Assembly: GCA_965153455.1 (NCBI GenBank)
Contig: OZ234493.1
Span: forward strand, 8,732,213 to 8,796,212
Length of the DNA stretch: 64,000 nucleotides
Source: Sphagnum compactum
Taxonomy: Eukaryota
Direction of reading: 5' to 3'
Shown here: one piece after another, positions 11,347-43,699 of the stretch
How the letters are laid out: each line of letters opens with the position of its first letter
Numbering within the stretch: position 1 is the stretch's first letter
Notes under the pieces: generated by a model
The model's database searches: none
The model's input: the letters and a program-made list of their open reading frames with translations, nothing else
Told to the model about the DNA's origin: nothing
Made by a program: the position numbers and the translations under genes

Positions 11347-11706
11347 GAAAAGTTGAACACATCAAATAAGAATGTGGTAGAGTTTTGAATTATAAACTAC
11401 CTTTTTTCTGCTCATAATTTTTCTTCAATGAGTTTAGAAAAGTTGAACACATCAAATAAGAATGTGGTAGAGTTTTGAATTATAAACTGCCTTTTTTCTG
11501 TTCATAACTTTTCTTCAATGAGTTTAGAAAAGTTGAACACATCAAATAAGAATGTGGTAGAGTTTTGAATTATAAACTGCCTTTTTTCTGCTCATAATTT
11601 TTCTTCAATGAGTTTAGAAAAGTTGAACACATCAAATAAGAATGTGGTAGAGTTTTGAATTATAAACTACCTTTTTTCTGCTCATAATTTTTCTTCAATG
11701 AGTTTA
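11347..11706. repeat. Tandem repeat, 90-bp unit x4
   Basis: Unit GAAAAGTTGAACACATCAAATAAGAATGTGG...TTCAATGAGTTTA starts at 11347, 11437, 11527 and 11617; copies are nearly identical. Confidence 0.95.
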
Positions 11707-19000: not shown

Positions 19001-20571
19001 TTTTCCCTAAAATATATCCATTGTTTCCTCTCCAGTGAGCTTACTACCCCTTGATTTTAGCTATTTTTGGGAAATACATGCAGTGTCTTTGGGCCAGGCT
19101 GCCAGGAGTTGACGCACTTTTGCAATCCTTTTTCTTCACAGTCATAATAGAGGCTGAAAATGATGCTTGTGCTATGGACACAAATATGTGAGGTTGACTT
19201 TGCACAATGCTTAGAATGCTAGGATAAATCATTGGCGGCAGTTTCTGAGCTCTTTCCACATTGACATTACGAGGATTGGAGATTTTGGGCGAGCAAGGAA
19301 TTACTTGGTTGGTTCGAAGCTCAGTGTTGTGCGATTATAACTTTTCAAGAGAACCTCTGGTTCCAGTTCCAACTTTTTTTAAAATGTGAATGGTTCCCTA
19401 TTCCTCAAGTTTCAAGACTCTTGGTGTGTTAGTTTTTCAGAAAAACATTTAATAAAGTTATTAATAAAGTCACCCTCTCTTTCACCCCGTATCCACTCTG
19501 CTTTCCCAGCCCATCCCCTCTTCCAGTGATATCGGCAAAGCAATGAAATTTTATTAAATCTCAGCATGAAAATTAATGTTGAAACTCAGTATTTAATGCA
19601 CAAGGTTCTAGACTAATTATAGTAGTTGTACAGGTAAGAGCAGTGGAAATATATGTAGCAGCACTGGAGGCGCTCAGAAAAACGGAAAGAGGGGATGAAA
19701 AAGAGTTTACACCAAAATTAGTTACCAGCATTGCACAATCAATAAAAAGTGTTCATATGTGCTCACTAAATGCCTAAACTCCAATAAACAAAAGAAAACA
19801 AACTTGCATATATATATACTTGGCTAAATTTGGGACACTCAAGCTTGCTTGCATCTGTCGATGGGTGGGGGCAAGGAGGGTGGTAGCTCATTTTTCAAAT
19901 GTAACAATTACATGCCTAATTAAGTACCTAGTTACTGGTGATTAATGTAAGACTTTTTAAGGTTTAGGGTTACATAGCATATTTCTTGGCATATTCGTAT
20001 GCTGACCTTGAGTACACATGTAAAATGGGCACTCAGAGGAATGTATAACATTTTTGGTAACATTGTCCAATAATCAAGAGGCTTTGTTCAGATTAAATGA
20101 TCTTTAAATCATTGAAAAAGCTCTTTAAAAGGGTTATAACAAAAATCTGTCTTTGCCTTCAGGATTCGGCACGCACTCCAGCTTAGGTTGGCTAATTTGG
20201 GTTTTTTACACAGTCCACTCAGAAGTAGTTTAGCCCTGCAATTCAAAATTAATTTTGTTCCAAGTTCATTTCATTCTACTTCCACCATGAAAATAAGATT
20301 AAATTCAGGAAGCAACTGATATGCTGGTGCCATTGAGCTGTTACCTTCCCTAGGCCAGAGTGAATTAACAGCCACCAATGCACCAGTTGGCCGTTCTGTC
20401 CACTGGATGGGTTGCGTTTTTTCATTCGGCGCCGGATGGGGCTCATCACAGTCGATTTCTTTTTGCTGCTGACCACTGTACTTTTTTTTTTTTTTTCTTG
20501 CTCGTTTTTCCCTGGACCTGACCTCACACATAGCTACCCTGCTCACTTTTCTACCCTGTTCACTTTTCTAC

Positions 20572-20711
20572 CTAGCTACTGTACTCACCACCTACCCTAC
20601 TAACCTGGCTACTGTACTCACCACCTGCCCTACTAACCTGGCTACTGTACTCATCACCTACCCTACTAACCTAGCTACTGTACTTACCACCTACCCTACT
20701 AACCTAGCTAC
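20572..20711. repeat. Left subterminal tandem repeat of the MULE, 33-bp unit x about 4
   Basis: Unit CCTAGCTACTGTACTCACCACCTACCCTACTAA; further partial copies near 20945 and 22895. Confidence 0.85.
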
Positions 20712-23700
20712 CCTATTAATTACATACCCTACCCTAAAAACCTTACCCTAAATGCAATACCTGCATTTTGGGCCATTTCGAAAGTATGCATGTGGGGTTC
20801 AAGCTTTCTTTATACAAAGATCCTACCCTAAATGCAATACCTGCATTTTGGGCCATTTCGAAAGTACGCATGTGGGCTTTTAGCATCTTTATATGAAGAT
20901 CATACCCTAAATGCAATACTTGCATTTTGGGTCACATCACTAACCAAGCTACTGTACTAACCACCTACCCTACTAACCTAGCTACTCTATTAATTACATA
21001 CCCTACTAACTTAATCATTAGGTTTAGGGTTGAGACACATAAATTAATTGATAAGTTTTTCATAAATGTATAATAATTAATTTAAAATAAGCTAAATTTG
21101 GGGGGAAAATTTTAGGGTTTACACACATGTGAAGTAATACAATTGCATTTTATACCTTCTTCAAAAAGAATGGAAAAATTAGGTTGGAAAAATCACACAA
21201 AGGTAAAAGACATATCTTCTTTTTTGGTTTTGTACGAAATTTATTTGATTATTTCTAAAGATTAACATATTTTCTTTCAGTTAATAAATATTTATAATTA
21301 AAAACCTTTGAATTTTGGTTTCTAAATTTTTTCCTATGTTCTTTTAAATTTGGTTATTTTGCATTATATGATTTGTATAGTTTATATAGTTTTTTGGGTT
21401 TAGGGCATATATCACTAATTCTTCTTTTTGTTAGGGTTTGTATAGTTAGGGTTTATATGAAGATCCCACCCTAAATGCAATACCTGCATTTTGGGGCACA
21501 CAAAAAATACACATGTGGGGTTTAAGCATCTTTATATGAAGATCCTACCCTAAATGCAATACCTGCAATTTGGGCCACTCCGAAAGGACGCATATAGGGT
21601 TTAAGCTTCTTTATATGAAGATCCTACCCTAAATGCAATACCTACATTTTGGGGCACACAAAAATAATTAATTAATTTCAAATTAATATGCTAACAAAGG
21701 TGTGTATAGAGGTTAACGTTGTTGATTAGGAGTTCCATGATTCTTACTTCGTTTCATGAATTTGAAAAGAGGTTGTATTGTTTGTGGATCAAATAATATG
21801 ATGACAATTGTGATCAAACTTATCTTGGTGTAGGAATTTTTCATGAAAAAGCTGAACTTACAATCGATAACATGGAATAATTATCTTAAATAGTGATTTC
21901 AATAACTTATTAAAACAAAAATATACTTCAGTTAATTAATCAAATATCAAATTAATCAATCTGATTTTTGATAATTATTCATCTAAATTATTTGATAATA
22001 AATTAATTATCAGAAATATTTTATATTAAATTGGGGGGAAATTTTTGGGTTTAGATATATGTGACACAATACAATCTCGTTCTATATTTTCTTCAAAGAG
22101 ATTGAGAAAATGAGGTTGGAGTTATCACACAAATGTAATTAACAAACTTTATGTGAAAACCCAACCCTGAATGCGATACAAAGTTTGTTGAGATCAAAAA
22201 TAAACCAGCAACTATTATGAGACCTATATGCGAGTATTGCAAGAGATGCCAAAAAAAACCAGCAGCTATTATGGGAACTATATGCAGGTATTGCAACGAA
22301 TGTTATAAAAACCCAACGAATACCATGGATCGATATGCGGGTATTGCAACGAATGAAGAATGTCAGCAACTATTCAGTTGGTAAAAGTAAGTACGGGTGT
22401 AGGTATTGCAACGAAACCCCAAAATTCTAGTTCGTAAAGGTAAGTATAAGTCTGAAGTTGAAATGAAAAAACAAACCTAAATGTAATACCCACGTTTGAA
22501 AAAACCCCATCTAAATGGTTTGGATACCCTTAAGTGAAGACCTAGCCCTAAACACAATATGCATATGCAAAGTCACTTTGAAATAACCCAACCCTAAATG
22601 CAATACCTGCAATTTGGGTCACTCCTAAAGGACGCATGTAAGGTTTAAGCTTTCTTTATACGAAGATCTTACCCTAAATGCAATACCTGCATTTTGGGTC
22701 ACGTTGAAAGTACGCAAGTGGGATTTAGGCTTATTTATATGAAGATCCCACCCTAAATGCAATACCTGCATTTTGGGTCACTCTGAATAGCTACCTTACT
22801 CACTTTCCTACCCTCATAAGTATTGCACCAACCTTCATACCTTATTTATTATCCCTTACTCACATAGCTACCCTAATAACTAGTTATCCTACTGACCTAG
22901 CTATTGTACTAACCACCTACCCTACTAACCTAGCTACTCTATTAATTACATACCCTACTAACTTAACCATTAGGTTTAGGGTTGAGACACATAAATTAGT
23001 TCATAAGTTTCTCACAAATGTATAGTAATTAATCTAAAGTAGGCTAAATTTGGGGGGAAAATTTTAGGGTTTACACATATGTGAAGTAATACAATTGCAT
23101 TCTATATATTCTTCCAAAAGAGTGGAAAAATTTAAGTTGGAGAGATCACACAAAGGTAAAAGACATATCTTCTCTTTTGGTTTTGTATGAAAATTATTTG
23201 ATTGTTTTTGTAGATTAACGTATTTTTCATTATATAATTTGTATAGTTTTTTGGGTTTAGGACATATATTAGTAAGACTTTTTCTTGTTAGGGTTTGTAT
23301 AAATAGGGTTGTAATAAGGCTTATGGCAAAATATCATTTGAATTTTAAAGGTTATGCTTTATTATTTAGTGTATAAGAATTTGGTTCATATATTTCAAAA
23401 CCTAAGGTTTATACTCTAAATTTTGTTCATTGTATTGGTTTTTGATCTTTTCACTTGTTTAGATCTATACCATAATTTGAATTTCCTTTGTTTCCATATG
23501 TTCCATAGTTGCTAGGGTTTAATATTTTCTAACCCATTTTTTTACGAGTTATGATTTTTTAGGGTTGCATTTTCAATTGGGACTATAAACTTTGGTGGAA
23601 CGTTGTCATCTTTTATTCTTAAAGGTATGCATTTGTTTCTTGTTACTTCTTTTGTTTTTTTGTTTATATTTTTCACAATTCAACCTCTTTTCATTTCCTA

Positions 23701-24268
23701 CTTGTTGGATATAGAAAGGGCATCAAGTTTCATTAAATATACAAGCATAGATAAAGGTTTTATACTTTTACATGGATATTTCATATTCAATATTTCTTTG
23801 TAGTTCTTTTTTTCATACCCATATGCGAATTATGCATTGACTACCCACAACCAGTGTGGGTTTTATGGCTTAAGGCAGGTATTGCATTTTGCACCTTTCA
23901 AACAGTGTGCATTAATTATCATTATGTAGGTATTGCTACATGGGGTTTTCAGACATTATGGGTTTAAGGTACAATACGGGTATTGCATATGAGAAAATTT
24001 TCAATGATGGGAGGTTTAATAGCTCAATGTGGGTATTGCCAAAGTTTGTTTTAGTATATGGGTTCATAATGCAAGTGTTGTACGTTATGTACATTGGAAT
24101 AATAGGTTTTTTATATCATGATATGGGTGTTGTAATGGGAATTCCAAGTCACAACATTGATTTTAAAGGAGCCATGAATGTATTGCATTTTGGGTTTTTG
24201 TTCAATGATGAATGTTTAGAGAATTATAAATTCTCTTGATGCAGGAATTTGTCCTACTTCCTTCAATC

Positions 24269-26964
24269 ATGGGAAGGGTTCCAAAGTCCCATTCCATTCA
24301 TGTCCAAAACCCCACCAAGTCCCCTTTCTCAAATAAAGACTTGGTGTGGACGTTTGGGATACGCCATGGAGGGCAAAATAAAGTGAGCATTCAATTTGCT
24401 TATGTTCCGTATACTCGCATCTCGGAATTCTTGGAAGGTGAACGAGGGGATACGAGCACCCCTGTGGAATGGAGTGTTTACAAAAACTTTCCAAGCCAAA
24501 CGGATGTCAAGCATCCAACTATCAAAAACCACCTCGGGCATACATGGTAAACATTTATGGCATTAACCTTTTTAATTTATTTAATTCATATACCAAAGAT
24601 GTAATCATTTACATTTTGAAAGTTTTTTGGTCTAGGTATCAATGCGCATATGGACCAGAGGACTATCGAGAAAATTCAACCCACACTCGATCTATTAAAC
24701 GAGGATGCCTAGCGTCATTCTCAATCAAACGTCTATACACACGACCTGATGTGGCTGAGATCACAATTTATCATAAGGCCCATACACGAATTGATGGGTC
24801 ATTCGCACATGGTGAGCATGACCCAGAGTCCATTTCTCGTATGTCTCGTTATGCTCCACGCATGTCACAAGCACTGAAAGACCACATATGGGCCCAATTA
24901 AGCTTAGGTTATACCCCCAAACAAATATATGACAAGCATAAAGCAATTTGGTGAGAACGTGTGAATGCGGGTCAAAGCATGACACGAGATGATTTCATTC
25001 GGCTTCAAGACATTGCATATTTGGATCGAAAACATAAGAAAGGGAGTTGGCGTTTACACACTAACCCTGCAATTTCAATTCGGTCTTGGGCTCTCCAACA
25101 TCCGGAAGATGTGTTCTTTTTCCAAGATGTTGGTGAAATGAATGGAACTCAAGTCCCATTCACCATAGGTATTCAAACACCAACTCAATGTGAGTCCATG
25201 CTATCATATGGTCACAATGGTGCCATTTCTATGGATGCCACATTTGGCACAAATGACATGAAATTCCATCTATTCACCTTGATGGGATTTGATGATCATC
25301 GCACGGGTGTCCCTTTAGCCTGGATCATTACAGGTAGGCAAACAGTGCAAGATTTGATCGAATGGTTGAAACCATTAAAAGAGAAGATGTTATCACTCAT
25401 GCCACATTGGAAACCATCATGTTTTCTCGTTGATGATGCACCTCAAGAATTGAAGGCATTACGGTTAGTTCTATACCTAGTATCGACTTTGTGTTTATTT
25501 CCTTAAATGTTTTTTAATATCTTTCATAAAATTCTTGATTACTTCAAATGCATTTTATGTTGTACTAACCCCATCCACTCATGGATATTTTATTGCATAT
25601 GTGTCCTTATTAGGGTCGTATGGGGTATGGACAAGGTTCCCATCTACCTTTGTTGTTGGCATGTTCTCAAAGCATGGCGCCTACATGGTACTGAAAAAAT
25701 CAAAGATGTGGAAGTGCGGGGTGGAATCCTCCAAGACCTTCATGATGTGATGTACATGTCCATCAATCATGGAGAAACAATTGATGACTTCAAAGAGCGT
25801 GGGAGGGTTGCTGTGAGAGAAAGCCTTCATAAACATAGGCCTGGTGATGCGTGGACAAACTATTTCTGGACTTATTACCATCAATTTGGTAAGTGATAAT
25901 ACTTATCATGGTTCAGCATTCAAATTTATTTTGTATAATGTTATTCATCCTTGTGTATTGTGTTTATGTTTGTAGAATTATGGATGGTGGGTGTTCGAAG
26001 AGTGCCCCATTCCAACCAAGACACCCAAGTGAGCATTGAATCATATCATGGTGCGTTGAAACGTTGGCTTGCTCTTGACACAAGAGGCCTTAGAGGGCGT
26101 AGGATTGACTGGTTGGTGTGGCGATTAACAACAACCATTGCACGCCACTACATGCACACATTGGAAATGAAAAAGAGGGGTTTCATAAAAAACAAGGTTA
26201 TGGAGGCCATTATTACACGAAGTGTGGAGAAGGCAGCCCTTATTCCAATCAGCCATGTGTACCAACCAACCCTTGAGAGTGATGGAGCTTGGGCCGTACG
26301 GAGCCAACGCCTTCCCAATGTTATTTACACGGTGAAATTCCCATTCACCGAAATGTTTTGTTGCACATGCGAATGGGCATTGCGAGCGAACATGTGTAAA
26401 CACCAAATTAAGGTCATTCTCACATGCACAGACATTTCTCAAGAGGATATCATTCATTATTGTGGAACATGGTATGGATCACATCGTGGAGGGTTGGGTC
26501 ACATGTTTGCAGACCCGCAACATATTCCAGATGATATGGAGTCTAGTGATGATGACGAAGATGATCATCTTGAAGGTGATGATGGGATCATGGAATTTGA
26601 TGGGCTCATGAACATGGAGCAAAATGATCTCCCTATGGGTGCCATTGTAGGGTCTAATGAGACAATAATGTCATCAACCCCAATGGAAAGGGCTCTTGCA
26701 CAATTGGTCACTACAATGCAAGAGATCACAAATGAATGTAAAGAAGGCGATGTGACACTTTGTGAACATGCCACCTCACACATGAGAGTATTGGCATGTA
26801 ATATTCGTAACATACGCCTCACAAAGGCAAATGCAATTTCACACCCAGGATTGGTGTTACGCCGTGTAGAAGATGGATTGGGAAATAGTGTCAAACGGCT
26901 CAAAGATTGGCATGAAACAATGCTCAATCACACAAATGTACGTACTAAACGATGTCATGAATAA
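24269..26964 (+). pseudogene. MuDR/MULE transposase with SWIM zinc finger (about 789 codons), one premature stop
   Basis: Exons 24269-24546, 24636-25463, 25614-25888 and 25976-26964 join in frame (2370 nt, GT-AG). Motifs: YQCAYGPEDY..RGCLASFSIKRLY; DDE residues in ISMDATFGTN, FLVDDA and SIESYHG; CCWH (CxxH); SWIM CTCEWALRANMCKH. In-frame TGA at 24952-24954. A likely 5' UTR intron spans about 23625-24244. Confidence 0.9.
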
Positions 26965-28580
26965 ATGTTTCAATTACTAATCAAGATTGTTGCCATTAGC
27001 ACTAAGAATTTTCTTTTAGAATCAATGTTGTATGGAGGAAATCATACCCCAAATTCTTTGAACATCATGTATTCAACACACATGAAGTCCAATATGGCAC
27101 AAAGGTTATTATTGTTTCCAAATAATAAGCACAAAAAGTGTGAAATGCAAACACACAAGGATAATGATAATATTAGTGTTAGATGCAAGTATTGTAACTA
27201 GGCCCCAAAATCCCAGTTGGTAAAAGTAAGTACAAATGCAAGTATTGCAATCATGCCCCAAAATTCCAGTTGGTAAAGGTAAGTATGGATGTAGGTATTA
27301 CAATGAAACCCCAACATTCCAGTTAGTATACGTAAGTATAAGTTCGGGTATTGCAAGTTTAAATGAAAAACAAGCCTAGATGCAATACCCACACGTTAAA
27401 AAAAAACCCATCTAAATGGTTTGGGTACCCTTAAGTGAAGACCTAGCCCTATACACAATATGCAGACGCAAAGTCACCTTCAAAAAACCCTACCCTAAAT
27501 GCAATACCTGCATTTTGGGTCACACGAAAAATACGCATGTGGGGTTTAAGCCTTCTTTAAATGAAGATCCTACCCTAAATGCAATACCTGCATTTGGGGT
27601 CACTCTAAAATAATTAGTTAACCCTTACTTTTTTTCATGAATTTGAAAGAGGTTCTATTATTTGTGGAACAAATAGTACAATGACAATTGTGATCAAGCT
27701 TATTTTGGTGTAAGAAATTTTCATGAAAAAGTTGAACTTGCAATTTATAACATGGAATAATTATCTTAAATAATGATTCCAATAACTTATTAAAACAAAA
27801 ATATACTAAATTTAGTCAATCAAATATCAAATTAATTAATCTGATTAAATCCAACTTTTTATTTTCAAGTAAATAAATTTAAGCCAAATGATTGGTTAAT
27901 TATTTTAAATAAATAAATGATTATCTAATTCTTCATAATTAATCATCTAAATTATCTAAAATAATGGTCTATTAATTATTTAATTATATGACAAATTTTA
28001 TTGATAATTCATTAATTATCATAAATATTTTATATTAAATTGGGGGGAAAATTTTAGGGTTTAGACATATGTGAAACAATACAATTGCATTCTATATCTT
28101 CCTGAAAGAGATTGGGAAAATTAGGTTGGAGTTATCACACAAAGGTAAAAAAAAACCTTATGTGAAAACCCAACCCTAAATGCAATACAAAGTTTGTGAA
28201 GATCAAAAAATAAAAAGTTCAAGCTTAAATATTTTTCAAAGATGTTCATATTTTTTTTCCCCTTTTAAAGTTGTATATTCATACTAAAAACGTAAATATA
28301 AAGTCTTTAATTTAATGAGATTTTAAATTGTGTTAAAAAAAAATCAAAACACATAATAGTGGTTTAAATATTGGTCCAAATATATTGTTATTTATAAAAC
28401 CTAATACATAAATAATGATATTATGGAATTATACTGTTGATCCATTTTCAATACATATAATATTTTAGGGGTTTAGGGTTTAGGGTTGGGTTTTCACAGG
28501 TTAAGGTTGGGTAAACCCTAAAACCCTAAACCCTACAAATATTAATAGTAAATAAAATAAATCTACAGTGCATTATAGAG

Positions 28581-29328
28581 GGTTTAGGTTTAAGGTTTAG
28601 GGTTTAGGTTTAAGTTTAGGGTTTAGATTTAGGGTTTAAGGTTAAGGTTTAGGTTTAAATTTAGGGTTTAGGTTTAAGTTTAGGGTTTAGATTTAGGGTT
28701 TAAGGTTAAGGTTTAGGTTTAAATTTAGGGTTTAGGTTTAAGTTTAGGGTTTAGATTTAAGGTTTAGGGTTTAGGTTTAAGTTTAGGGTTTAGGGTTAGA
28801 TTTAGGGTTTAGGGGTTTAGGGTATAAGTTAGGGTTTAGATTTAGGGTTTAAGGTTAAGGTTTAGGTTTAGGGTTTAGGGTTTAGGTTTAGATTTAGGGT
28901 TTACGGTTTAGGGGTTTAGGGTTTAAGTTAGGGTTTAGATTTAGGGTTTAAGGTTTAGGTTTAGGTTTAAGGTTTAGGGTTTAGGTTTAGATTTAGGGTT
29001 TAGGTTTAAGGTTTAGGGTTTAAGTTAGGGTTTAGATTTAGGGTTTAAGGTTAAGGTTTAAGTTTAAGTTTAGGGTTTAGGTTTAGATTTAGGTTTTAGG
29101 GTTTAGGCGTTTAGGGTTTAAGTTAGGGTTTAGATTTAGGGTTTAAGGTTAAGGTTTAGGTTTAAGTTTAGGGTTTAGGTTTAGATTTAGGGTTTAGGTT
29201 TAAGGTTTAGGGTTTAGGTTTAGATTTAGGGTTTAGGTTTAAGGTTTAGGGTTTAAGTTAGGGTTTAGATTTAGGGTTTAAGGTTTAGGGTTTAGGTTCA
29301 GGTTTAGGGTTTAGGGTTTAGGTTTAGG
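28581..29328 (+). repeat. Interstitial degenerate telomeric array (TTTAGGG with TTTAGG, TTAAGG and TTTAGA variants)
   Basis: About 750 bp of continuous plant telomere-like repeats with recurring variant blocks; a short inverted pre-array lies at 28465-28535. Confidence 0.95.
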
Positions 29329-30699
29329 ATACTGATAATGATGCTGCAAAAGCTGCTGTTGTGGCTACAAAGAAAAGTGATTGGTCTTAAGTGCGCACCT
29401 ACCGACTAAGTACGCACACTCCTCCTAGGTTCAAGTTGCATACTTAGGCGGGAGGCTATTGTACGCATGTGGGTTTAAGCATCTTTATACGAAAATCCTA
29501 CCCTAAATGCAATACCTGCACTTTGGGTCACACAAAAAATACGCATGTGGGGTTTAAGCCTTTTTTAAATGAAGATCTTACCCTAAATGCAATACCTGCA
29601 TTTAGGGTCACTCTAAAATAACTAGTTAATTTCAAAATCATATGCTAACAAAGGTGTGTATGGAGGTTGGGGTTGTTGATTGGGAATCCATGATTGAAAT
29701 TTAGAGTTTGGGAAACCCTAAATTAATTAACAGTTTTTTTACAAATTAATAGTAAATGAAATAAATCTATGGTGCATTATAGGGGGAATTTTATATGCAA
29801 AAAAATGCAATACATATTTGCAAGATCATACTGAAATAATACATAGGTGATTGGAGGAAAGCATATGTGAAAACCCTAAACCCTAAATGCAATACTCGCA
29901 TGTAATGTCATTTCAAAAATGGTCTGGGTACCAAAATTATGTCTTTTTATATACCTAAATTAAATATTATTCTAAATTAATTTTATGACAAAATGTAAGT
30001 TTTACAATGAATGAAAAAACCAGCAACTATTATGGGACCTATATGCGGGTATTGCAAGAGAACCCAAAAAAACCAGTCGCTATTTTGGAGACTATATGCG
30101 GGTATTGCAACGAATGAAGAATGTCAACGATTATTTGTGCCCTTTATGTGGGTATTGCAAGGAATGCAAAATGCCAGCGGCTATTATGGGACTCATATGA
30201 GGGTATTGCAATGAATGGAAAAGGCCATTGCCTATTAATGCAAAATGTCTGTGGCTATTTTTTGAGGTTATATGCAGGTATTGCATATTAGAAAATGGTC
30301 TTATGGAGTTCATAATAGAAAATGATGTGGGTATTATATGTTTAAAATGTGTGGATTATTTTAAAAGTCTTCAAGTGATGTGAGTCCTATTAACTTAGAT
30401 GTAAGTATTGTATAATGTTTATTTTGATCTTTGATTTGATTCTTACATCTCAAGTACAAACAAAATTATGACAAAGAAGACATATAGGATTAACCAAATA
30501 CACATCAAACAAGTGTGAGTAGCCGATACTATTATATTAATAAAAGATGTACAAAAATGGGTGCATGGAAAATTACTAGAGAACCCAATGAAGAAAAAAC
30601 ATTGGATCACTAGAACATATCAAAGGATCAAAGTTCAAAATTGGGTAGTCCAAAAAAGAAAAGGGCTACAAAACCTTACTAATTATATAAAATGAAACC

Positions 30700-32427
30700 C
30701 TAACCCATATCAGTATCTACAATCCCATGTTTAGCTCGATATGCAACTGCTGCATTTGCAGCCTTTGCTGCATGATGAGCAGTGTAAAGATGGCGGCGTT
30801 GCATCTCAATCTGAACTGCATTTGCAACAAACTGGGCCTTTGTTTGGTCCTGAACCCTACAAACACCCAAAAATCACCAAATTAAACCGTAACACACCTT
30901 GGATCAAATACAATAAAAAAATAATAAACATTGCTTAATATTTTTTTTTACCTTCCATGAATCATTCTAGATTCATGAAAATCCAAAACATTCGATAATT
31001 GTTTTGTCCGACTTGTTTTGCTGGACTCTCGCTCCCAATTCTTCACATCCCATGCCGTCTTTAATTGTCGTGCGTATGCACAACGAGTGGATCGGATCAT
31101 CCCCTGTAAGTCATCATCCTTCTCCATTCGTACAATTGCATCTCGCGCCACACTGCCCACACCCCAGGCATCAAGGCCCAACACCTTCAACAATTGCTCT
31201 GAAGCAAATCTAACCAAAGGTGGTTTTGGGAGTGGTGGACACTGTTTTGCAAGAGTCATCAAATGATTCCACTCGCGTTCTGCTTTGGCACGAGCACGAC
31301 TAGCAGCTTTCTGATCATTTCGCCTCTGCACAGCCATCGCATCTCCCAAAATGCGAGCGTTCATCTTGCCATGGTCTTGATGCCGAGGACCTCATGCAGC
31401 AATTGAAGGCCTCCCAGGTTTTGACTTTTCTGCCACCAAGCCGTGCACCTCCTTCAAATGCTGCGTCAATAGCCATTTCGCACAATATGCGACAGTGCAA
31501 TTGTGGACTTTGCACTTCCATTTGGACCCGACCTTTGTCCATTCCTTATCCTTCCGAGCCAGATTAGGTGGACAAATAACTGCAGGTGGTTGAGAAGCTT
31601 GCTCAGTTTCCAGTTCCGGACCTAAACCCAAAAACAGAAAGTTCAATAAACAAAATGCAGGTATTGCAAAACATCAAATCACAAAATTACATATTACTTC
31701 TATAAACATGAACTGTTCTAAGGTATTGCAGTAAATTTTTTTTGACAAAAACATTTCTGCACCATCCAACAAATGGAAGGTGCAGGTGCAATTAAATTTT
31801 GAGAAATTTGTACAATTTTATTAATTTGTAATTAATCTAATGTCCTATCTTCTAATGTCCACGAATTCTACAGTAATCTATACCAATGCTACCCTTTTGT
31901 TTCAATTGTGATAGAGCACAATTATGCTCACCAGTTTCCCGATCTAATGCAGCAATATTATCCTTAGCAACAATTTGCTGGGCACCTCCCGCATCTGATG
32001 TGGTGACAATTTCCTAGGCACCTCCCGCATCTGATGTGGTGACAATTTCCTAGGCACCTCCCGCATCTGATGTGGTGACAATTTGCTGGGCACCTCCCGC
32101 ATCTGATGTGGTGACAATTTCCTGGGCACCTCCCGCATCTGATGTGGTGACAATTTCCTGAGCACCTCCCGCATCTGATGTGGTGACAATTTCCTGGGCA
32201 CCTCCCGCATCTAATGTGGTGACAATTTCCTGGGCACCTCCCGCATTTGATGTGATGACAATTTCCTGGGCACCTCCCGCATCTGATGTGGTGACAATTT
32301 CCTGGGCACCTCCCGCATTTGATGTGATGACAATTTTTTGGGCACCTCCCGCATCTGATGTGGTGACAATTTCCTAGGCACCTCCCGCATCTCCTGCATC
32401 GCTTTTCTTTACTCTCCTCCTACCCAT
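30700..32427 (-). pseudogene. MULE accessory gene: 12-aa tandem repeat, C2H2 zinc finger and uncharacterised helical C-terminus (about 440 codons), four premature stops
   Basis: Exons 32427-31932, 31621-30952 and 30856-30700 join in frame via GT-AG (1323 nt): MGRRRVKKSDAG(DAGGAQEIVTTS)n..ALDRETG|PELETEQ..WKCKVHNCTVAYCAKWLLTQHLKEVH (C-x4-C-x12-H-x4-H)..MIHGR|VQDQTKAQ..GIVDTDMG*. Stops: TAG at 32374-6, 32050-2 and 32014-6; TGA at 31392-4. Confidence 0.8.
31976..32392. repeat. Coding minisatellite, 36-bp unit x about 11.5
   Basis: GGCACCTCCCGCATCTGATGTGGTGACAATTTCCTG recurs every 36 bp from 31981 to 32377. Confidence 0.97.
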
Positions 32428-32579
32428 TATAACCTCCAACCCTAAACCAGTAGTTATTACCAATTGTTAATTCTAATGAACAAAAGCACAAGCAACAACA
32501 AAACAAAAAAAATAAATCGCCACTAGCAGCAAGAAAAAAGAAAAAAAAAGCGTTGCAACTTTGAGCTTTAGAAAATTGC

Positions 32580-32890
32580 AGCTTTGAGCTCGGAGCTTTA
32601 AACGTTGCAGCTTTGAGCTTTGAGGGTTTAGGGTTTAAACCCTAAACCCTAAACCTGCAGCGCTGCAGCTCTGAGCTCCACGAGTTAGGAGCAGCGCAGC
32701 AGCTCCGAGCTCCACGAGCTTGGAGCAACTCCAAGCTCTGAGCTCCACGAGCTTGGAGCTCCAGCACAGCTCCGAGCTCCACGAGCTTGGAGCTCTAGCG
32801 CAGCTCCGAGCTCCACGAGCTTGGAACTGTGCTGCTCCGAGCTCCGAGCTCCACGAGCTGGGAGCTGCAACTCCGATCTCCCAGCTCCAC
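32580..32890. repeat. GC-rich GAGCTC-based satellite, block 1
   Basis: Repeated GCTCCGAGCTCCACGAGCTTGGAGCT modules. Confidence 0.9.
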
Positions 32891-33371
32891 GAAAATTCTT
32901 GGAAAAGCTGATTCCACAAAGCTTTCATAACAAAAGAAATCCAAAGAACAACGATGAGCAATTGCTTTTTCCTTACCTGGATACTGCAGGCAGATTCAGG
33001 GCAAACGAAGCTTGTGTCCAAGTCCTTACCAAAACTGCGCCCAAAATCTTTCCTGCAAAACAGAATTAGTTTTCAGGGAGCCTCCTCTTCAAAAGTCTAA
33101 TTCTCCCCCTCTCCCCCCCCTCCAACACCTCTCTGAGATTCAACAGAAATGCAATTCCACGAAATTCCATCACCAGACACTTGGAATGGAAAAAAAATCA
33201 CGAAGACCAAAATGCTATCAGTGCTGATGCTTTTCCAAGCCAACACGACGACAGCTTCATTCTTGCTACCGAAGCCTGTTCTACCGTCACTCGTAAAACT
33301 CCGCACACAACAGCAAAAAAATGAAAAAAGAGAACAGATTTCTCGCTTTTCACAAACGTTGTTCCTTCTCT

Positions 33372-33375
<4 letters not shown>

Positions 33376-33425
<50 letters not shown>
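33376..33425. repeat. (GA)n microsatellite
   Basis: About 25 uninterrupted GA units. Confidence 0.95.
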
Positions 33426-33427
<2 letters not shown>

Positions 33428-33809
33428 ACAAAGTTCTCCTTCCGGCGCCTACTATAATGTATCGATCTCCCTACACCTCCTAACACAAGTCCGAATTTTC
33501 CATCAGATATCAATCCGCAATGAAGAAGAACATCCCGGGCCTGATAAAAGTGGAAAACAAGAAAAAACAGAACTCGCTAGCCAATTGTCATCCCTAGTAC
33601 CTGCTGGTGTCTCGAAGCTGATAAAAGACAAAGCAGAGAGAATTGCCTTTCCAAAACTGCCAGCCAAGAAAACCAAAAGAAACTGAAAACCCTAAACCCA
33701 ACAAACGAGCCGTAAATTGGTCCACTTCTCTCTCAGTCAGATTCCCGCAAATTCTTGTCTCCAAAAATAAATTTATAATAGAAAATTTTCGTCGCGAAAG
33801 CTCCAAACA

Positions 33810-34216
33810 CCAGCGCTCGAGCTCGGAGCTGCAGCTCCAAGCTCCGAGCTCCACGAGCTGGGAGCTGCGTTGCAACTCCGAGCTCCACGAGCTTGGAGCC
33901 AATTGTCATCCCTAGTACCTGCTGGTGTCTCGGAGCTGCAGCTCCCAGCTCCGAGCTGCAGCTCCAAGCTCCGAGCTCCACGAGCTGGGAGCTGCGCTGC
34001 AACTCCGAGCTCCACGAGCTTGGAGCTCCAGCGCAACTCCGAGCTCCACGAGCTGGGAGCGTGGAGCGTGGAGCTTGGAGCTCCAGCAGAGCTTGGAGCT
34101 GCAGCGTGGAGCTCCGAGCTCCACGAGCTTGGAACGTGGAGCTCGGAGCTGCTCCAATCTCGTGGAGCTCGGAGCTGCGCTGCTCCGAGCTCCAAGCTCC
34201 ACGAGCTTGGAGCTCC
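33810..34216. repeat. GC-rich GAGCTC-based satellite, block 2
   Basis: Same modules as block 1, in both orientations (CCACGAG and CTCGTGG). Confidence 0.9.
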
Positions 34217-35044
34217 TCTTCAAGCAAACATTGTTGGACAAAGATGGAAATTGACTGAAACCAAAGAGTGCAGAACATACATGAGGACACAGTACCGTCG
34301 ATAAGTTCGGCACCTAGGAGATGTTTATTGCTGAAGCTCGGTACCGCTGATATCTTCTTCTGGCAGGATAGAAGCGTTGAAGAGGAGGAAAGAAACCAGC
34401 AATATAATATTATTACATGAGATTCTTACGAGCACCGAAGTCTGCCGCGAGGGGGAAGGAAATCCGTAAGGGCGAATGCTCAACTACAACTGTCTTCCTT
34501 TCCTTTACGATCAAGTGGAAGTACGCAACAACAACAGCAACAGCAACGGCGCCATATATAATAAGCAATCCAGTAATGAACGAGAGGCCGCGTGCAGAGC
34601 GCCTATAAGCAATGTTCTCAAAAACTGTACAGCTGCAACAACACCAGCAGCTCCTCAAACACAGCGTTGCAGCAAAACCACGAAAATCTACTCACATGTA
34701 AGTGAGCAGGAAGATGTACAAACCAATCGGCAACTCTAGGAAAAGGAAGCCTTCACACCAAATTGCACGCACGCGCTGCTGCTGATCTCCGAGAACCATA
34801 AACCTGAAGACGAGATATCGGAGAAAACTTGCACAATAGTCACCAAAACTACCGAAAATACAGACACCGAGAAAGAGAAAAGACACAGAAAACCGCACCG
34901 AGAGAGACAGAGAGACAGAGACAGAGAGGGAAATATGCAGTGAAAAGCAGAGGGTGAAAGAAGCAAGCGACCAGAGAGGAGACCAGAACTCAAAACGATT
35001 TTTAAAAAAATTCTACGCGAAAAAAAAAGGAGTTACAAGTTCGG

Positions 35045-35565
35045 GCAGCTCCGAGCTCCACGAGCTTGGAGCGTGGAGCTCGGAGCTGCTCCAATCTCGT
35101 GGAGCTCGAAGCTGCGCTGCTCCGAGCTCCGAGCTCCACGAGCTTGGAGCTCCAGCGCAGCTCCGAGCTCCACGAGCTTGGAGCTTGGAGCTTGGAGCTC
35201 CCAACTCGTGGAGCTCGGAGCTGTAGAGCTTGGAGCTGCAGCTCCCAGCTCGTGGAGCTCGGAACTGTAGAGCTTGGAGCTGCAGCTCCCAGCTCGTGGA
35301 GCTCGGAGCTGCAGCTCCGATCTCCAAGCTCCACGAGCTTGAAGCTGCAGAGCTTGGAGCTACAGCTCCCAGCTCGTGGAGCTCGGAGCTGCAGCTCCGA
35401 TCTCCAAGCTCCACGAGATCGGAGCTGCGCTGCTCCGAGCTCTGAGCTCCACGAGCTTGGAGCTCCAGCGCAGCTCCGAGCTCCGAGCTCCACGAACTTG
35501 GAGCTCCAGCGCAGCTCCGAGCTCCAAGCTCCACGAGCTTGGAGCTGCAGCTCCGAGCTCCACGA
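35045..35565. repeat. GC-rich GAGCTC-based satellite, block 3
   Basis: Same modules in mixed orientation. Followed at 35640-35790 by GGTGCTCCCG repeats and at 35810-35880 by a purine-rich GGTAGGAGG subterminal tract. Confidence 0.9.
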
Positions 35566-38156
35566 TGCAAAATAAAAAAGAAGAAGGGAAAAAAGCTTAC
35601 CTTGAAGCTCTGGCGCTCCTGCTTCAGGAAAAAAGCTCCAGCTCTGGCGCTCCCGCTCTGGCTGTGGTGCTCCCGGTCTGGCTTCGTCACTCCCGCTCTG
35701 CCTGTGGTGCTCCCGCGATGGTGCTCCCATTCTCGCTGTGGTGCTCCCGCGATGGTGCTCCTGCTCTCGCTGTGGTGCTCTGGCGATGGCGATTGGAGGT
35801 AAGACGTTGGAGGTAGGTAGGAGGGGGGAGGTAGGAGGGGGTAGGTAGGAGGTAGGAGGGGGGAGGAAGGTAGGTAGGGGAGAAATGTTTTGGGGCAGAG
35901 TAGAGGCGGGAGAAAAAAAAAATATTTGGGCAGTCCGGATGTGGTTTTGGTTCATCCCCAAAACAGGTTGAACGGGCTCATCCTCAACTGGTGCATTGGT
36001 GGCTGCTAATTCACTCAAGCCACCTTCCCTATATCTTTTGTTAGATACGGTCTTGCAAATATAAGATGAGCAACAACCAAGTGTGGATTTCAATGTTCAA
36101 CCAGGCATTACTGTGTCAACACTGAATTCAGTTTTTTGACAGCTTCATGGAACATTTCTTATTTTAGTGGTTACTGGTTTAAATTTGGCATACAAGGTAG
36201 ACCCATTATGCAATGAGCTGTTTGTTGGGACTTAAGCAACTTGCAAAATTGGACAAGATGCTTTAGGGATGAATGTGATGTGAGCAACTACATGAAAAAA
36301 TATGTTCCATCTCTAGAGATTTCAGATTACTATAATTCTTTTGTGTAGAGTAAGAATGGAGTGTGTGTTCTGGGCTACACAGCTTTACCATCCATAATTT
36401 TGAGTGTCTTGAAACAGACACTTCAATCAAAGAATTGAAATTTGGTTCTGAGAGAACTCCAACAATGTAGAGATCATAAAGGAAAATTGTGATACAGCTA
36501 AAAAAGCAAGTCAAAGTAGATCATTGTTTGTATTAGCTAACAAAATCATAGAGGTTGCTGAGCATATCAATCATAATCTGTTTTCTGGCAGAAGGAATGC
36601 AACTCAATTTCAAGGCAAGATCACAATTTGGGTAAATTCTGGCAGTTTAATAAATTCCCAATGACTATTTTACAACGCCTAGAAATATAATAATTCTGTT
36701 TTTGGCAACATCAAGTATCCCCTGGTGATGAATCAAGAATCTAAAACTGTTTGCAATCTGGTTGGGGAAATGTAGGTGAAAAGCATGTGGACAAATTGCT
36801 ACAAAATGATGGAAAAGTCCTCATAAACTCGAGTATCCCAAAATTTTGAACTTTTTTTGTTGGACACTTGTGGATTATGTTACTTTGCAATTGATTATTG
36901 AGGTATTTAAATGCACTCATAGGACATGTTCCCCTAGGTATGAATATTTGAATTGGCAATGGCAACCGATTTTGTCATTTAAGACAACATGGAAACTTGC
37001 TAGAATGACAGGTATGGACCTTTCCATGTAGAGGATAGCACTCTACATTTAAATGAAATTTACATGTAAATTTCAGCATTTAACGGGTTGGCGGTTTGTA
37101 GTTCATATGGACCTTAGAAAGCTTATTTCTTTCTTTCTCTAGAAAACATTTTATCTAATACTTGAGGTTTTAAGACCTAAACTTCAGGATAGCAAGAATT
37201 TACATTGAAAAACAGCCCATATTCAAGTTGTCTGACGTTTAGGGTTAAGGACAGATGTTCAAGGGGAGGCAGTAATGAGGAAGTTTGTGCGATAGGATAG
37301 GTATAAAAAAGTAGCTTTATAAGAACCCTTCATGTGTTTCAAATTGTAGGTGGGTTTGACACATTTGCATGAAACAAATTTAGTAATGGGTGCATTAAAC
37401 TGATTCATTTTCAAGTAGCAAAATCCAGATTTGCAGAGCTTTACACTTTATATGTTTTGTTACTTTTCAATTTTTACAGATAGTTTAAGCATTACGGTTT
37501 ACTATAATTGTTAACTGGAGAAAACCTATAGTTTACAAATTGGCTTTAGGGTTAAGATAGAAAATGCCATTCATATTACAGTTTGCAAAAGTATAGAAGA
37601 GCACGTAACATACATTGTTATTTGTTGTTCCCTACACTCCATGCTGAGCTAGAACTACTAATTTGTTCATTATTCTCCATGAAAGTAATGAAAAATTATA
37701 CAATTTCTCCTTCTCACTTGGTATTAGCAGATTACCACCCAACTTCAACTTCCAGAGCAAACAAGTACAAATAGCCAGCTACGGTAGTTAAATTTCAAGC
37801 ACTCTGGCACATGTGAAAGATAAGTGGAGCATTTGGTCACAACATGGGGAATAGAATAGTTATGATACAAGTTTGATATCATAACTATTTATCGATTGAT
37901 AGTGCCATATTCTTCAGGTTCCTCTGTTGATATTGCCTTTCCATTATGGTGTTAAACCCTCACAGTTTGTGATATTGTCTTCCCATTATGGTATTTTACA
38001 TTCAAAATTCAGTCATTTTACAACGGTAATTTGAATGCATTGTGGAAACTTTGAATGCATTTGTGTAGGGAAAAAGATTGTTCTCTTTCACTGATTAAAA
38101 TCGAATCCAACTGTAAAGTCGCTACTCATGCTAAACAATAGAAATTGTAATTTCAA

Positions 38157-38305
38157 GGTCATGCTTGTTAAATTACAAAATCAAATTGAAGGGAGAGAAT
38201 ATTCATACTAGAGAGATGGGGCTCACCTATTTAAGAAAGAGTTATGTGTCACTAGAAAAGATTTCTCTCTATTCAATTTGATTTTGTAATTTAACAAGCA
38301 TGACC
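38157..38305. mobile_element. MITE-like foldback, 149 bp, with 34-bp perfect inverted arms
   Basis: GGTCATGCTTGTTAAATTACAAAATCAAATTGAA at 38157-38190 is the exact reverse complement of 38272-38305. Confidence 0.7.
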
Positions 38306-40552
38306 ATGTAATTCATACTAGTACCATTCCATCAGCAGAAGCTCAAATACCCATGTGCAGATCTACCAAACAATTTTCAAATATGTAAATTGAGGAATTT
38401 GAATTCAATTCAATTCAAGATCCAATTCAATTCAAATTGCATGCAATTCCATTCAATATTTTCATTTGAATAAAATTTAATTTTCACAAAATCAAATCAT
38501 TTTCTTCATCAATCAGTTGTCATCGGTAGTGTGTAGCAATGTAGAGCCCAAATAATCACATTGCATGATGAGTGTTTAAAATTTATCCCCACACTACAAG
38601 TAAGTTTTTTGTTCTACATATCAAGGTTGCTTAAATAAACGTGATCATGTTAAATTAAACATGAAACTAATCGTATATCATTTTCTAAATACATAAAATT
38701 ATTTTTAATTATTTTACATTTCACTTAATGAAATACAAAGTAATTAAAGTAATGAAATATTAAAATAATTACGTACAAAATAATACAAAATTTATTTTAC
38801 AATATGTAAATCAACTATAACCACTACTAGAAAACGTGTGGACAAACCATTGTAGCCAACCACCCAACTCAATTTTGGGTGGTCTTCACATGACACAAAC
38901 CACTCACGATTTTGTTGAGTGGGCAAATCCCACTAGAAACTCACCAAAGTGGTCTTGCAATGGGAGGCAATGGTGGTTTAAGAATTTTCTACTTGAAATG
39001 CCTTTGGCCATGGTTGAAAATTTTCCATTCCACCTTTTCAAACCACTTGGGTGGTTTTTCATAGTGATCATTATAAACATTTTGCACAAGGTTAACCACT
39101 TTACAAGGTAGGTAGGTAAGTAGGTAGGTAAATAATATAATTAAGTTGTACCTAGGTTAAGATAATCAATTTATACATAGGTTTGGTAGAATAAAATATG
39201 TATTTAAAGCATGTCTACTATAAACTATAACAAGGTTAAGTATACCATAATTTATACATATAGGGTAAGTATATTATAGCCTATGTATCAAAGCTAAGTA
39301 TTAGTATACGATTTTTTATGTACCTACCTTGATATATAATGATCTATATTTACGTTAAGGTAGGTTAGGCTTACTTAATTACATGTAACTAGCCTAAATA
39401 TAGCCTAATTTATACATACCAAGCCCTACATATAATCTACATGTATAGAACATATTGAATTTACAAAAATGCAAATAATAGTTCAAAGACAATGTTTCAC
39501 AACACATTAAACTCAATTTTTAAATGTCAAGAATAAAATGTAAATATGCGTTATATTTTGCTTTTCACCATAAGTAGCATTCCCCAATTGTGGAACTAGC
39601 CCACCTTGGAGAAACCTACCAAAGTGTAAGGTAAAGCCCTCATGTAGGGACAATTCCTAAATAAGGGGCCTAGGAGAAGGGAATAGTTGAAACAGCCCTC
39701 CATTCTTAAAATGTTTCTTACATGTGAGCCCTACCCAATGCAAGAGATGAGTCAAACCTTATGTGTTAAGGTATAATAACTTCACAAGTGAACGTTTTGT
39801 TTTGTGAAATGTCCCACACAAGGCAACCTTGTATGATGATGCCTCTTGTTCGTATGACAAGAAATTAGAAAACACATATTGTGATCTCTTATGATATTAG
39901 TAGGAGGTGTCGCATACTATGTTGCATTGATTATTGTGCAAGGTAATCCTTTGGTGCAACAAGGCATTACACTCTATGAACCAAAGCTTGCCAAGGCGAT
40001 ATGCCCAAGTTGGCAAACTTTGGTTCACAAGGTCTAATGCCCAAATGAAAATATGGTGTGAAATTTCACACAAATGTGAAAAGTAAAATGGAAAGATAAT
40101 ATCTTGTTTATATATATACATTATTCCTTGTTTTTGAGGAAAAAATCATCAATTTTTTTAATAAAAAAATTTAAAAACTTCTCCACATTTTCACCTCGGT
40201 TTTGGTTTGACCTAGCAAATTTGGTTTGCACTTTTTTAAATGTTAGACAAATTCCTAAAACCTATCACCATTTACCCATGAAATCCCTTTTGAAATGCTT
40301 GCAACTAACATTATGCAAATAGTTTGTTAAAAAAAACACTGATATATTAAGAAGACATTACCTACACTACCTACACTTCTTCTTTTGGGGTTTGGAAAAG
40401 TTTGCACATTTGGGATTTTATCTTGTCAAACAATTGCAGCGTGTCTTGCATATGCTGTTGTCCTAATATAATATGGAGGAGGAGGAGAAGAAGAAGAACC
40501 AAGAGCAGGAGAAAGTAGAAGGGGAGGAGAACGAGACCCGGGGGACGGAGTC

Positions 40553-40918: not shown

Positions 40919-43034
40919 AATGGTTGGTCAAATTGAAGCAATTCCCGACTATTAAGGATTTAATTTGAAACAATATTTTTCAGTCCCTTGGAGGCACTTT
41001 TGTGTTTCCAAGGAGACAACTTGTAAGGTCAAAGGTGATCGATCATTCATTTGAAGGAAAACCTGCAACTTGTACAACAGACAAGTTTCAATTAAGAGTA
41101 GTAAACAAATGACATGGTGCTACTCCAAACATTGCTTGCTTCAAGCAAACGTTCAGTCTCAGAGTTTTTACGGGATTTCTGCAACACTTGTTTTGTTAGG
41201 TGTGACCATCATGCAAATCATGGCAAATAAAGTCTTCCTTTTGAAGCAGGTACTTCATTTTACTTTGTCCCCTTTCTTTCATTTTTCTACTTTGTAAGAT
41301 CTTCCATTGGCTGCTGTAGTTCTGGAAAGCCCACAGCTTACGATGCTGAACACCAGTCACATGAGTTTCTGTTAGTCTGCTTGCATGATGGTACATACCT
41401 AATGCAGCCTGCTTCGCGGCCACAACAACTTTGTCTAGTACTGTGGCAACTTCCACACTAATTATATGTACCTTATATGAATGATGTATGCATATACATT
41501 TTTTATCCCCTAGATTAATTCCACCTTTTTTGTTTGGGGTGATGGTGAATGGTGAAACAAAAAAATGCCATGTTCATTTGAAATAATAATGCAATTCATC
41601 TTCACGTAAGTACATTGTACAACAAAACTGCTAATTTGAAATTAAGAAAATTGGTACATCATTGAACAAGGGTCTCTGTTTTTTAGTTGTGTACGTGTTT
41701 TTTATTTAGTTCACATGATTTTGAAGCTAATGTTAACATAAACAAAACTAAAGTGATGAAAGGAAAATGAACTTGACATGGACCATTGATTATGTTATAA
41801 CAATCACATTGAAGTTATTCACTAGGGGATGAGATCACCCAGTTTTGGCATAATATGGGATCAAATTCATAATAGGGTGAGAATTTTACAACACAAAATA
41901 TATTTGCACCCTTATTTTGGATCCTTGTGCATGTGCAAAGGAGACATGATGCAAAATCTTTATGCAATGATCCTTCTTCATTTTTTTTTGTGTGAAGTAA
42001 ATGTTTGCAAATGAATAGGTGTAGAGAAAGAAGGGAGTGAGAGATTTATGAAAGAAGTATGGTTTGTAAAATTTTTGAGAGATTCAAAGATCATTCTCAC
42101 TTGTGACAACTATAGCAAGAGCATGGAGCAAGCGGTGGAGGAAGAGTGTCATGCAAGAGCAAGAAGTTGCAATGCACAAGGGTTTTATTGTTCTAAAGGT
42201 GATGATTAAATTTGTAACATTCAAGTTGTCCTATCTTCAAAAACTTGGAGATGGTGTTAGTAGAAAATCAAGAGGACAATGGCAAATAAAAATTTCAACT
42301 ATCATTCATTAGATGTGAGCTTGTGGTCAACTTTCATGTTAATGCCTATGCTACGGTTTATTTTCATGTTCTTCTTGAAGCTCTTCAAACTTGTTCAAAA
42401 GTTGACTTATACATGGTCAATACAATCAATTCACAATGGACATCCTTTGAACCTCAAATTTGCATCAAACCTAATCCATGAATCCTAAAATGTGATTGAC
42501 CACAACAATAATCATGCAATTCAACTTTCGAGTAAGTTGTTATTTTCACAAATACCTTAGTTCTAAAACACATCTTGCCACACTTGGCCATGACCCCCTC
42601 TAGCTTTGGAGTCTAAATTGAGTAAACAAAGCATGTTTTAAAGTTGTAAGCAAAAACATGCATTATAATGTATTGGAAATTGTTCAAATAGATCATATTT
42701 TCATACCATTGCAATGCATGGCATTGCTAGGTAATCCTAAATGAGTATCTCCTTAGAGTTGATTCAAACATTGAATCATATAAGGATTTTCACTTGGATT
42801 TGGAAATTCCTAGGTAGAATGGAACTTTATTTCATAAGTTGCAGCTTTATATGACTTTTTGGAACTACATATGAACTTTGTAAATTTTCCCAAAAGTTCA
42901 TCAAATTGGGAGATGATTTTGTATAGGTTTGTCATGAATTTGAAATGACTAAAAGAAACCCCATTTGTGCATCAAACTTGGTGATATTTTTCTATAGGTT
43001 TATGTTTGGTCTTGGAACCTCATAATTGGAACAT

Positions 43035-43560: not shown

Positions 43561-43699
43561 TTTAGCCCTTTTATGTTGCAATTTAAGTTTATAATTCACT
43601 TTTTAACTCCAACAGAACCATTTGGAATCTTTCTTTCATTTGGCACCTCTAGTGATCTATTTCATTTATTTCAAGGTTGATTTATCATTAAAATTGAAA

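Follow-up and report, generated by a model that had tools for sequence, protein, structure and literature searches.

This study examined 64,000 nucleotides of Sphagnum compactum (GenBank assembly GCA_965153455.1, contig OZ234493.1, positions 8,732,213 to 8,796,212 of the forward strand); this whole stretch is called the window below. The window is plant nuclear DNA and contains a Mutator-like element (MULE) of 15,669 bp at 20353..36021, in which a decayed transposase gene on the plus strand (24230..26964) converges with a minus-strand gene running from 32427 to 30700. We interpret the open reading frame (ORF) at 32427-30700 as the pseudogenised second, or accessory, gene of an autonomous-type MULE of Sphagnum, with a probability of about 0.7, and we propose below how its product might act. 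A preliminary description made from the sequence had placed this gene inside a MULE as a gene other than the transposase, and the terminal inverted repeats (TIRs), the 10-bp target site duplication (TSD) and the convergent MULE transposase gene bear this out.

The Mutator-like element and its transposase gene

The limits of the element were set by the ends of homology, the TIRs and the TSD. Homology to 80 related metagenome loci ends sharply at 20353 on one side and at about 36021 on the other, and one of these loci (L036) has the same left terminus as the window element within a different flank. The left TIR (37 nt, 20353..20389, plus strand) is an inverted match to the right TIR (35985..36021, minus strand). 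Its core at 20358-20389 agrees with 36016-35985 at 31/32 positions (E = 8e-10), and over the full 37 nt from the very ends 34/37 positions match when counted by eye, a length that is short for a MULE. The identical 10-mer ACCTTCCCTA stands directly outside both ends, at 20343..20352 on the left and at 36022..36031 on the right. MULE TSDs are reported to be 8–11 bp long (PMC6446971); the perfect 10-bp duplication falls within this range, as observed in one element only. L070, the one further locus in which two termini are present, resembled a short but complete derivative; it has no TSD and was dropped as evidence.

The transposase gene contains introns and was recognised by its Pfam MULE domain and by alignment with a liverwort protein. 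The MULE domain (PF10551) was found on 24955-25506 (E = 6.2e-8, 33.4 bits against a cut-off of 27.6), directly after an in-frame stop at 24952-24954. The alignment with a 654-aa SWIM/MULE protein of the liverwort Riccia showed 28% identity (E = 7e-53) and was interrupted by two intron-like gaps. A CxC...CxH pattern (CCTCEW...CKH) in the ORF at 25939-26964 aligns to the SWIM region of the Riccia protein, and Pfam returned no SWIM match. Based on the MULE domain, the TSD and the TIRs, the element belongs to the Mutator superfamily.

The accessory gene, which is convergent to the transposase gene, starts 3.6 kb inside the right terminus. In two of the related loci, L036 and L041, window position 23419 is joined to 26960, and the transposase-bearing segment 23420..26959 is missing. 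The junction shows a 2-nt AA overlap and neither TIR nor TSD, which indicates an internal deletion by which the transposase was lost and the accessory gene was kept. Among the 28 loci whose upstream flank exceeds 2500 nt, 22 have the right terminal segment, at a distance of 1.4–2.9 kb upstream of exon 2. L019 (6128-6994) and L031 (9986-10852) are isolated gene fragments in which only the equivalent of window 30769-31634 is present and the rest of the element is absent.

Two related noncoding blocks of 2–3 kb (20570-23419 and 26960-30237) stand on either side of the transposase segment. They consist of 51–53-bp and 80-bp tandem units in direct orientation, and both are kept in the derivative copies. 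Clustering of these elements is suggested by another locus, L023 (positions 1-604 and 1693 onward), where two of them follow each other head to tail, with about 1.1 kb between the left end of one and the right end of the other.

The accessory gene, its family and its transcripts

The minus-strand gene begins at ATG 32427, contains two GT..AG introns and ends at the TAG at 30702-30700. The coding part of exon 1 (31932..32427) opens with MGRRRVKK, followed by about 12 DAGGAQEIVTTS units with three TAG stops. Intron 1 (31622..31931, 310 nt) has the donor CTG/GTGAGC (GT at 31931-31930) and the acceptor TTTAG/G (AG at 31623-31622), and intron 2 (30857..30951, 95 nt) has the donor AAG/GTAAAA (GT at 30951-30950) and the acceptor TGTAG/G (AG at 30858-30857). 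Between them, exon 2 (30952..31621) encodes a C2H2-like finger, a KPGRP patch and a helical region and carries a TGA stop, while exon 3 (30700..30856) consists of 51 codons and the terminal TAG. The joined exons of 496, 670 and 157 nt amount to 1323 nt, that is, 440 codons and a stop, and the DAGGAQEIVTTS frame from ATG 32427 stays in phase across both introns. The frame could thus be rebuilt with the start, the splice sites (31931/31622 and 30951/30857), the terminal TAG at 30700 and the four stops given in the preliminary description, and two Sphagnum gene models of relatives agree with it. One of them, P0070, has a repeat-rich N-terminus (MGKRRRLRKS...) joined to exon 2 at the same acceptor as the window gene, and the other, P0098, has an exon 2–exon 3 join identical to that predicted in the window. 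Intron 1 is additionally supported by one RNA contig and intron 2 by two metatranscriptome contigs, as detailed below.

The repeat in exon 1 is a tandem array at 31970-32392 with a period of 36, 11.8 copies and 94% matches, as determined with Tandem Repeats Finder (TRF). As had been noticed earlier, the 36-bp array is open in other frames as well; in fact it is open in all three minus-strand frames, including MREVPRKLSPHQ and DAGGAQEIVTTS. The two motifs that had been reported in exon 2 are both present and recur in relatives: the finger CKVHNC-x12-H-x4-H, which has the spacing C-x4-C-x12-H-x4-H, at 31514-31443, and KSKPGRPS, with KPGRP at 31421-31407.

Four stops private to the window copy interrupt the frame, namely TAG at codons 18, 126 and 138, within repeat units, and TGA at codon 242 (31394-31392) in exon 2. 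The exon-2 TGA, which is codon 76 of the exon piece, occurs only in the window copy among 71 distinct copies; 12/12 aligned relatives have Gly at this site, and 103 of the 112 reads of the DNA run X22 that cover the TGA base are without this stop. With four stops in the accessory gene and one or more in the transposase gene, the window copy is dead. Hundreds of relatives share its frame, its two introns and its motifs. Exon 3 was detected by tblastn in 64/80 related loci, and the other 16 all have 153 nt or less of downstream sequence. Eight X22 reads skip 85 nt inside exon 2 (31500-31586); therefore, some genomic copies bear that deletion.

The accessory gene belongs to a large family. A protein search with exon 2 matched 336 of 472 candidates at E ≤ 1e-3 and none of the 609 candidates with 392 or more residues. 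A profile search of cluster representatives gave 379 matches at E ≤ 1e-3, and a scan of metagenome contigs confirmed at least 509 relatives from 600 stretches. The named relatives come from Sphagnum balticum and S. jensenii only; the others are in moss and peatland records. Members that share only 24–40% identity keep C-x4-C-x12-H-x4-H, GRP/PST, QDH..MN, KP.LV, WGVG and even the ...IHG at the end of exon 2.

For the analysis of selection, 72/80 loci were combined with the window (eight gapped, short or edge-cut loci were dropped) and two duplicates were removed, which left 71 exon 2 sequences of 669 nt. Among these copies, 6, 16, 25, 11, 7, 4 and 2 contained 0, 1, 2, 3, 4, 5 and 6 stops, respectively. 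Loci with a stop-free exon 2 are L001, L006, L018, L027, L060 and L076. The 159 stops are located at 35 codons and are mostly CGA to TGA, CAA/CAG to TAA/TAG, and TGG to TAG/TGA changes, and the majority codon is a stop at 0/223 exon-2 positions. Most copies have decayed by stops of the C>T (transition) type. The pooled Nei-Gojobori ratio of nonsynonymous to synonymous substitutions (dN/dS) was 0.385 in the true frame and 0.49–0.81 in five control frames, which also stay below 1 because the transition/transversion ratio is 2.8. When the ratio was binned by pairwise divergence, the true frame gave 0.65 below 8% divergence, against 0.35 and 0.54 in the +1 and +2 control frames. At 16–20% divergence the true frame gave 0.33, against 0.67 and 0.86, and above 20% again 0.33, against 0.80 and 1.07. 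These values show purifying selection between subfamilies and are typical of a transposon gene that is constrained along transposing lineages and decays neutrally after insertion.

Members of the family are transcribed and spliced as predicted, a result that holds for the family and not for the window copy in particular. Two metatranscriptome contigs from runs X15 and X16 skip 30856-30950, with CT..AC on the plus strand, equivalent to GT..AG on the minus strand, and with 25 nt on the shorter side. These were counted once, because the two runs are nearly equal in size and the contigs are identical. In one RNA contig, the match to the window breaks off at 31622, the acceptor of exon 2; the next 27 nt read, after reverse complementation, ...SVIASDQEI, which is the exon 1 end of other subfamilies. 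In the polyA run X23, the first mate of 34 reads was always on the plus strand, as expected for minus-strand RNA in the usual stranded library, and no splice joint reached the support of three reads among these 34. A paralogous copy of the stretch at 30530-30858, with exon 3 and the 3' untranslated region (UTR), is apparently spliced into a different transcript.

The predicted protein and the noncoding arrays

A start of the form M-G-[KRTE]-[KRG]-[RK] was found in 27 of the 65 loci with at least 700 nt of upstream sequence, and the window copy reads MGRRRVKK. The basic N-terminus is followed by a variable acidic region in which 36-bp units encode 12-residue repeats; TRF detected such units, 2.6–8.2 in number, in 13 of 16 copies examined. 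In L040 and L042, the closest relatives (92–93% identical), the same start is followed by 3–4 DAGGAQEIVTTS units without stops, compared with about 12 units in the window; therefore, the window array was expanded recently.

The structure was predicted with AlphaFold. A first model from 17 near-identical rows was unusable, with a predicted local distance difference test (pLDDT) value of 45.1, and a 53-row alignment (8 close copies and 45 of 150 listed profile matches, selected by length) gave a pLDDT of 70.6 and a predicted template modelling score (pTM) of 0.33. In the latter model, the finger forms a beta-beta-alpha unit with strands at 36-39 and 42-45 and a helix at 52-68 (block-mean pLDDT 68–87). 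Beyond the finger come a linker that contains the GRP patch, an Arg/Lys-rich helix of 44 residues (block-mean pLDDT 83–94) and further helices. Both marks of a C2H2 finger were thus found, the pattern in the sequence and the beta-beta-alpha fold in the predicted model. Further, the family profile matches the TFIIIA finger at E = 3.3e-4 and GLI at E = 0.023.

The C-terminal domain, which had not been recognised in the preliminary description, has likewise no counterpart in Pfam or, by Foldseek, in the PDB. Pfam searches of the gene pieces returned only sub-threshold zinc-finger matches (E ≤ 1), and P0001 gave no Pfam family at E ≤ 0.01. Foldseek with the moderate model gave 0 matches in the PDB at E ≤ 0.001, the VIA wide fold search gave only generic long-helix matches (best Z 6.1, on residues 85-159), and the best ESM Atlas score, 0.85, is below the trust level and belongs to no named family. 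Two candidate motifs were set aside. The core of an AT-hook is R-G-R-P with basic flanks, and K-S-K-P-G-R-P-S has P rather than R before G-R-P and is AT-hook-like only. A bZIP basic region in the long helix was rejected as well, as the spacing of N, AA and SR, judged by eye, is unlike the bZIP signature, and Pfam gave no bZIP match. The protein shares with classical single C2H2 fingers the C-x4-C-x12-H-x4-H spacing and the predicted beta-beta-alpha unit, but differs from them in the 44-residue basic helix and the helices of no known fold that follow the finger. In the GAGA factor, for example, one C2H2 finger flanked by basic regions is able to bind a short GA-rich site.

The region between the accessory gene and the nearer terminus contains GGAGCT-rich tandem arrays (32657..35562), composed of GAGCTCCACGAGCT and its variants. 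The 14-mer GAGCTCCACGAGCT has 26 matches with at most one mismatch, compared with 0 expected, and GGAGCT reaches a density of 27 per kb in 32428-36021 (98 occurrences), compared with 0–0.4 per kb in the rest of the window. Among 16 of the 23 loci with the terminal segment, picked by hand, 15 have 2–29 GGAGCT in the first 700 nt inside the terminus, and the downstream parts have almost none. The unit GAGCTCCACGAGCT itself is common only to the window, L040 and L042 (2/80 loci), and other subfamilies have different arrays at this place.

A long 5' UTR starting near the right TIR had also been suggested, and the splice-site sequences make a 5' UTR intron at 32473..35600 on the minus strand plausible. 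The candidate donor AAG/GTAAGC is at 35601/35600, with its GT kept in 3/3 aligned loci, and the pyrimidine-tract acceptor TTCATTAG is at 32474-32473, 45 nt before the ATG, with its AG kept in 46/46 aligned loci. Given this good donor and the conserved acceptor, most of the GGAGCT arrays may lie within the putative 5' UTR intron.

The intergenic part of the element also carries a telomere-like (AGGGTTT)n array of 750 bp at 28579..29328 (TRF period 7, 115 copies). Since the heptamer CCCTAAA is found, at smaller counts, in 65/80 related loci, telomere-like repeats are a family trait that was expanded in the window copy. A palindromic telomere-repeat pair, TTTAGGG/AAACCCT, is located upstream of the accessory gene, at 32620-32650 and at about 32440, just before the ATG.

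Known accessory systems, proposed role and alternative explanations

The extra genes of MULEs are few and poorly understood, and to our knowledge VANC is the only one with a known mechanism, acting as a transposon counter-measure to silencing by DNA methylation. In MuDR of maize, the genes are convergent and contain introns; MURB is not known to have a zinc finger. The window gene resembles mudrB/MURB in being a second ORF beside the transposase gene inside a Mutator element, a likeness by description alone, and the two differ in their hosts, a grass and a moss. The excerpted source lists as extra MULE ORFs mudrB, mutB, vanB/vanC and the C2H2 ORF of the aphid element Spectre, and describes mudrB as the second ORF of MuDR, whose function is unknown and which seems to be needed for integration (PMC6446971). 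It further reports that Spectre has a C2H2 zinc-finger ORF and a transposase ORF between perfect TIRs, and that mutB of the yeast element Mutyl is a DNA-binding second ORF (PMC6446971). By description only, the window element is similar to both, in that each has a second ORF, with a C2H2 finger in Spectre and DNA binding in mutB.

The comparison with VANC of the Arabidopsis element VANDAL21/Hiun concerns architecture only. VANC is reported to combine conserved domains with a highly variable region of tandem peptide motifs, and the short motif to which it binds has accumulated in noncoding regions of the element as tandem repeats that change rapidly (PMC5735166); VANC is further described as dicot-specific and structurally like MAIN (PMC13547354). 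The window protein likewise has a variable head of 12-residue repeats, and its element has lineage-specific GGAGCT arrays; unlike VANC, it has a C2H2 finger and, as far as the moderate model allows, no Pfam or PDB fold match. No description of the window element or gene was found in the literature on Sphagnum or bryophyte Mutator elements, supplements apart. The accessory family is large and previously undescribed, while MULE accessory genes as a kind are already known.

Taken together, the accessory gene appears to be a real helper-type MULE gene of a new protein family, with a putative DNA-binding helper role. We propose that the protein would enter the nucleus through its basic N-terminus and would bind DNA by the single C2H2 finger, the adjacent K-x-K-P-G-R-P patch and the long Arg/Lys-rich helix. 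Working in trans, as a helper or anti-silencing factor, it might then promote the expression or the transposition of the copies of its family, and the likeliest targets would be the dense GGAGCT arrays between the gene and the nearer terminus. An effector or specificity region could be provided by the variable acidic 12-residue repeats. Nuclear entry, DNA binding and a MURB- or VANC-like activity are inferred here from motifs. A more specific proposal would be a sequence-specific anti-silencing or activating factor that recognises its own GGAGCT arrays, with the repeat head and the DNA arrays co-evolving by repeat expansion. This would be a VANC-like system made from unrelated parts (C2H2 finger, GRP patch and basic helix) with an independent bryophyte origin; in this full form, we consider the proposal rather unlikely. 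If GGAGCT recognition were true, a VANC-like system would exist in a lineage remote from the dicots, the only group for which VANC is reported.

Several observations weigh against the interpretation as a DNA-binding accessory gene with its own transposase. The GGAGCT arrays are at one end of the element only, with 0 GGAGCT in 20353-24200, and nothing ties them to the accessory protein. The finger of the window copy is below the Pfam thresholds (best match PF23101, E = 0.095, 13.1 bits against 27), and only 2/53 family members reach zf-C2H2 (PF00096) at E ≤ 0.01. As the pTM is 0.33, a compact domain is not established by the model. Of the X23 reads, five that end at 30858 and eight that end at 30657 extend into sequence unlike the accessory gene; other transcripts therefore account for part of the signal over exon 3 and the 3' UTR. 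Lastly, none of the 80 related loci has a relative of the transposase. Only L036 and L041 have the downstream length and the homology needed to be informative in this respect, and both are without it; therefore, the pairing of the two genes is documented by the window copy alone. A weaker point of the same kind is that a protein search with the transposase core found only the liverwort protein (36%) and none from Sphagnum.

The lack of transposase relatives could also mean that the two genes are non-cognate neighbours, the transposase at 23420-26959 having come by insertion or recombination into a TIR-bounded element without being the partner of the accessory gene. The two informative copies are without exactly this segment, and one of its boundaries is 3 nt before the transposase stop codon, as this explanation would have it. 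However, the segment has neither TIRs nor a TSD, and its ends share a 2-nt overlap, which is a mark of deletion rather than of insertion. In DNA transposon families, moreover, deletion derivatives usually outnumber autonomous copies, and the 10-bp TSD of the whole element fits the 8–11 bp of MULEs given in the excerpted source (PMC6446971). We regard non-cognate neighbours as improbable.

The gene may instead be captured cargo, a host gene picked up by a MULE in the manner of Pack-MULEs and carried without serving the element. MULEs often acquire host fragments, as stated in the excerpted source (PMC6446971), and the introns of the accessory gene are what a captured genomic fragment would retain. 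Yet this gene is whole, from start to stop and with three exons, occupies the same place beside one terminus across subfamilies that are 73–94% identical, and has a dN/dS between divergent copies that is half or less of that in the control frames. The element also has a transposase gene, which Pack-MULEs, as defined in the excerpt, are without (PMC6446971). No host-like parent gene was found among the 336 exon-2 protein matches, the 379 profile matches or the 609 candidates of at least 392 residues. The view of the preliminary description that the gene is not a captured host fragment is upheld by this result and by a multi-copy family constrained between subfamilies, and we judge captured cargo to be unlikely. 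VANC has been proposed to derive from a captured MAIN-like gene (PMC13547354), so an old capture followed by co-option may also underlie the accessory gene.

A host regulator or domesticated gene, that is, a host transcription-factor family merely sitting in repeat-rich DNA, would account for the single C2H2 finger, the basic N-terminus and the transcription and splicing of some copies. It is very improbable in view of the stops in 65/71 distinct exon-2 copies, the copy number in the hundreds and the flanks, which are shared transposon sequence ending at the TIRs.

As the accessory gene of a well-delimited MULE, the window gene would represent a new accessory family that is abundant and maintained by selection in a land plant of an early-diverging lineage, and thereby a second independent system for studying helper function. 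The result also bears on annotation, since Sphagnum genomes and peatland metagenomes list hundreds of family ORFs under the label 'hypothetical protein'.

Outside the element, a class III peroxidase gene with introns (PF00141, E = 1.7e-21) is located at 13087-15157 on the minus strand, about 5 kb from the left end of the element. A 51-nt inverted repeat pair, 92% complementary and 63 nt apart, is found at 38149-38313, and tandem-repeat blocks occupy 43024-45258 and 11346-11706.

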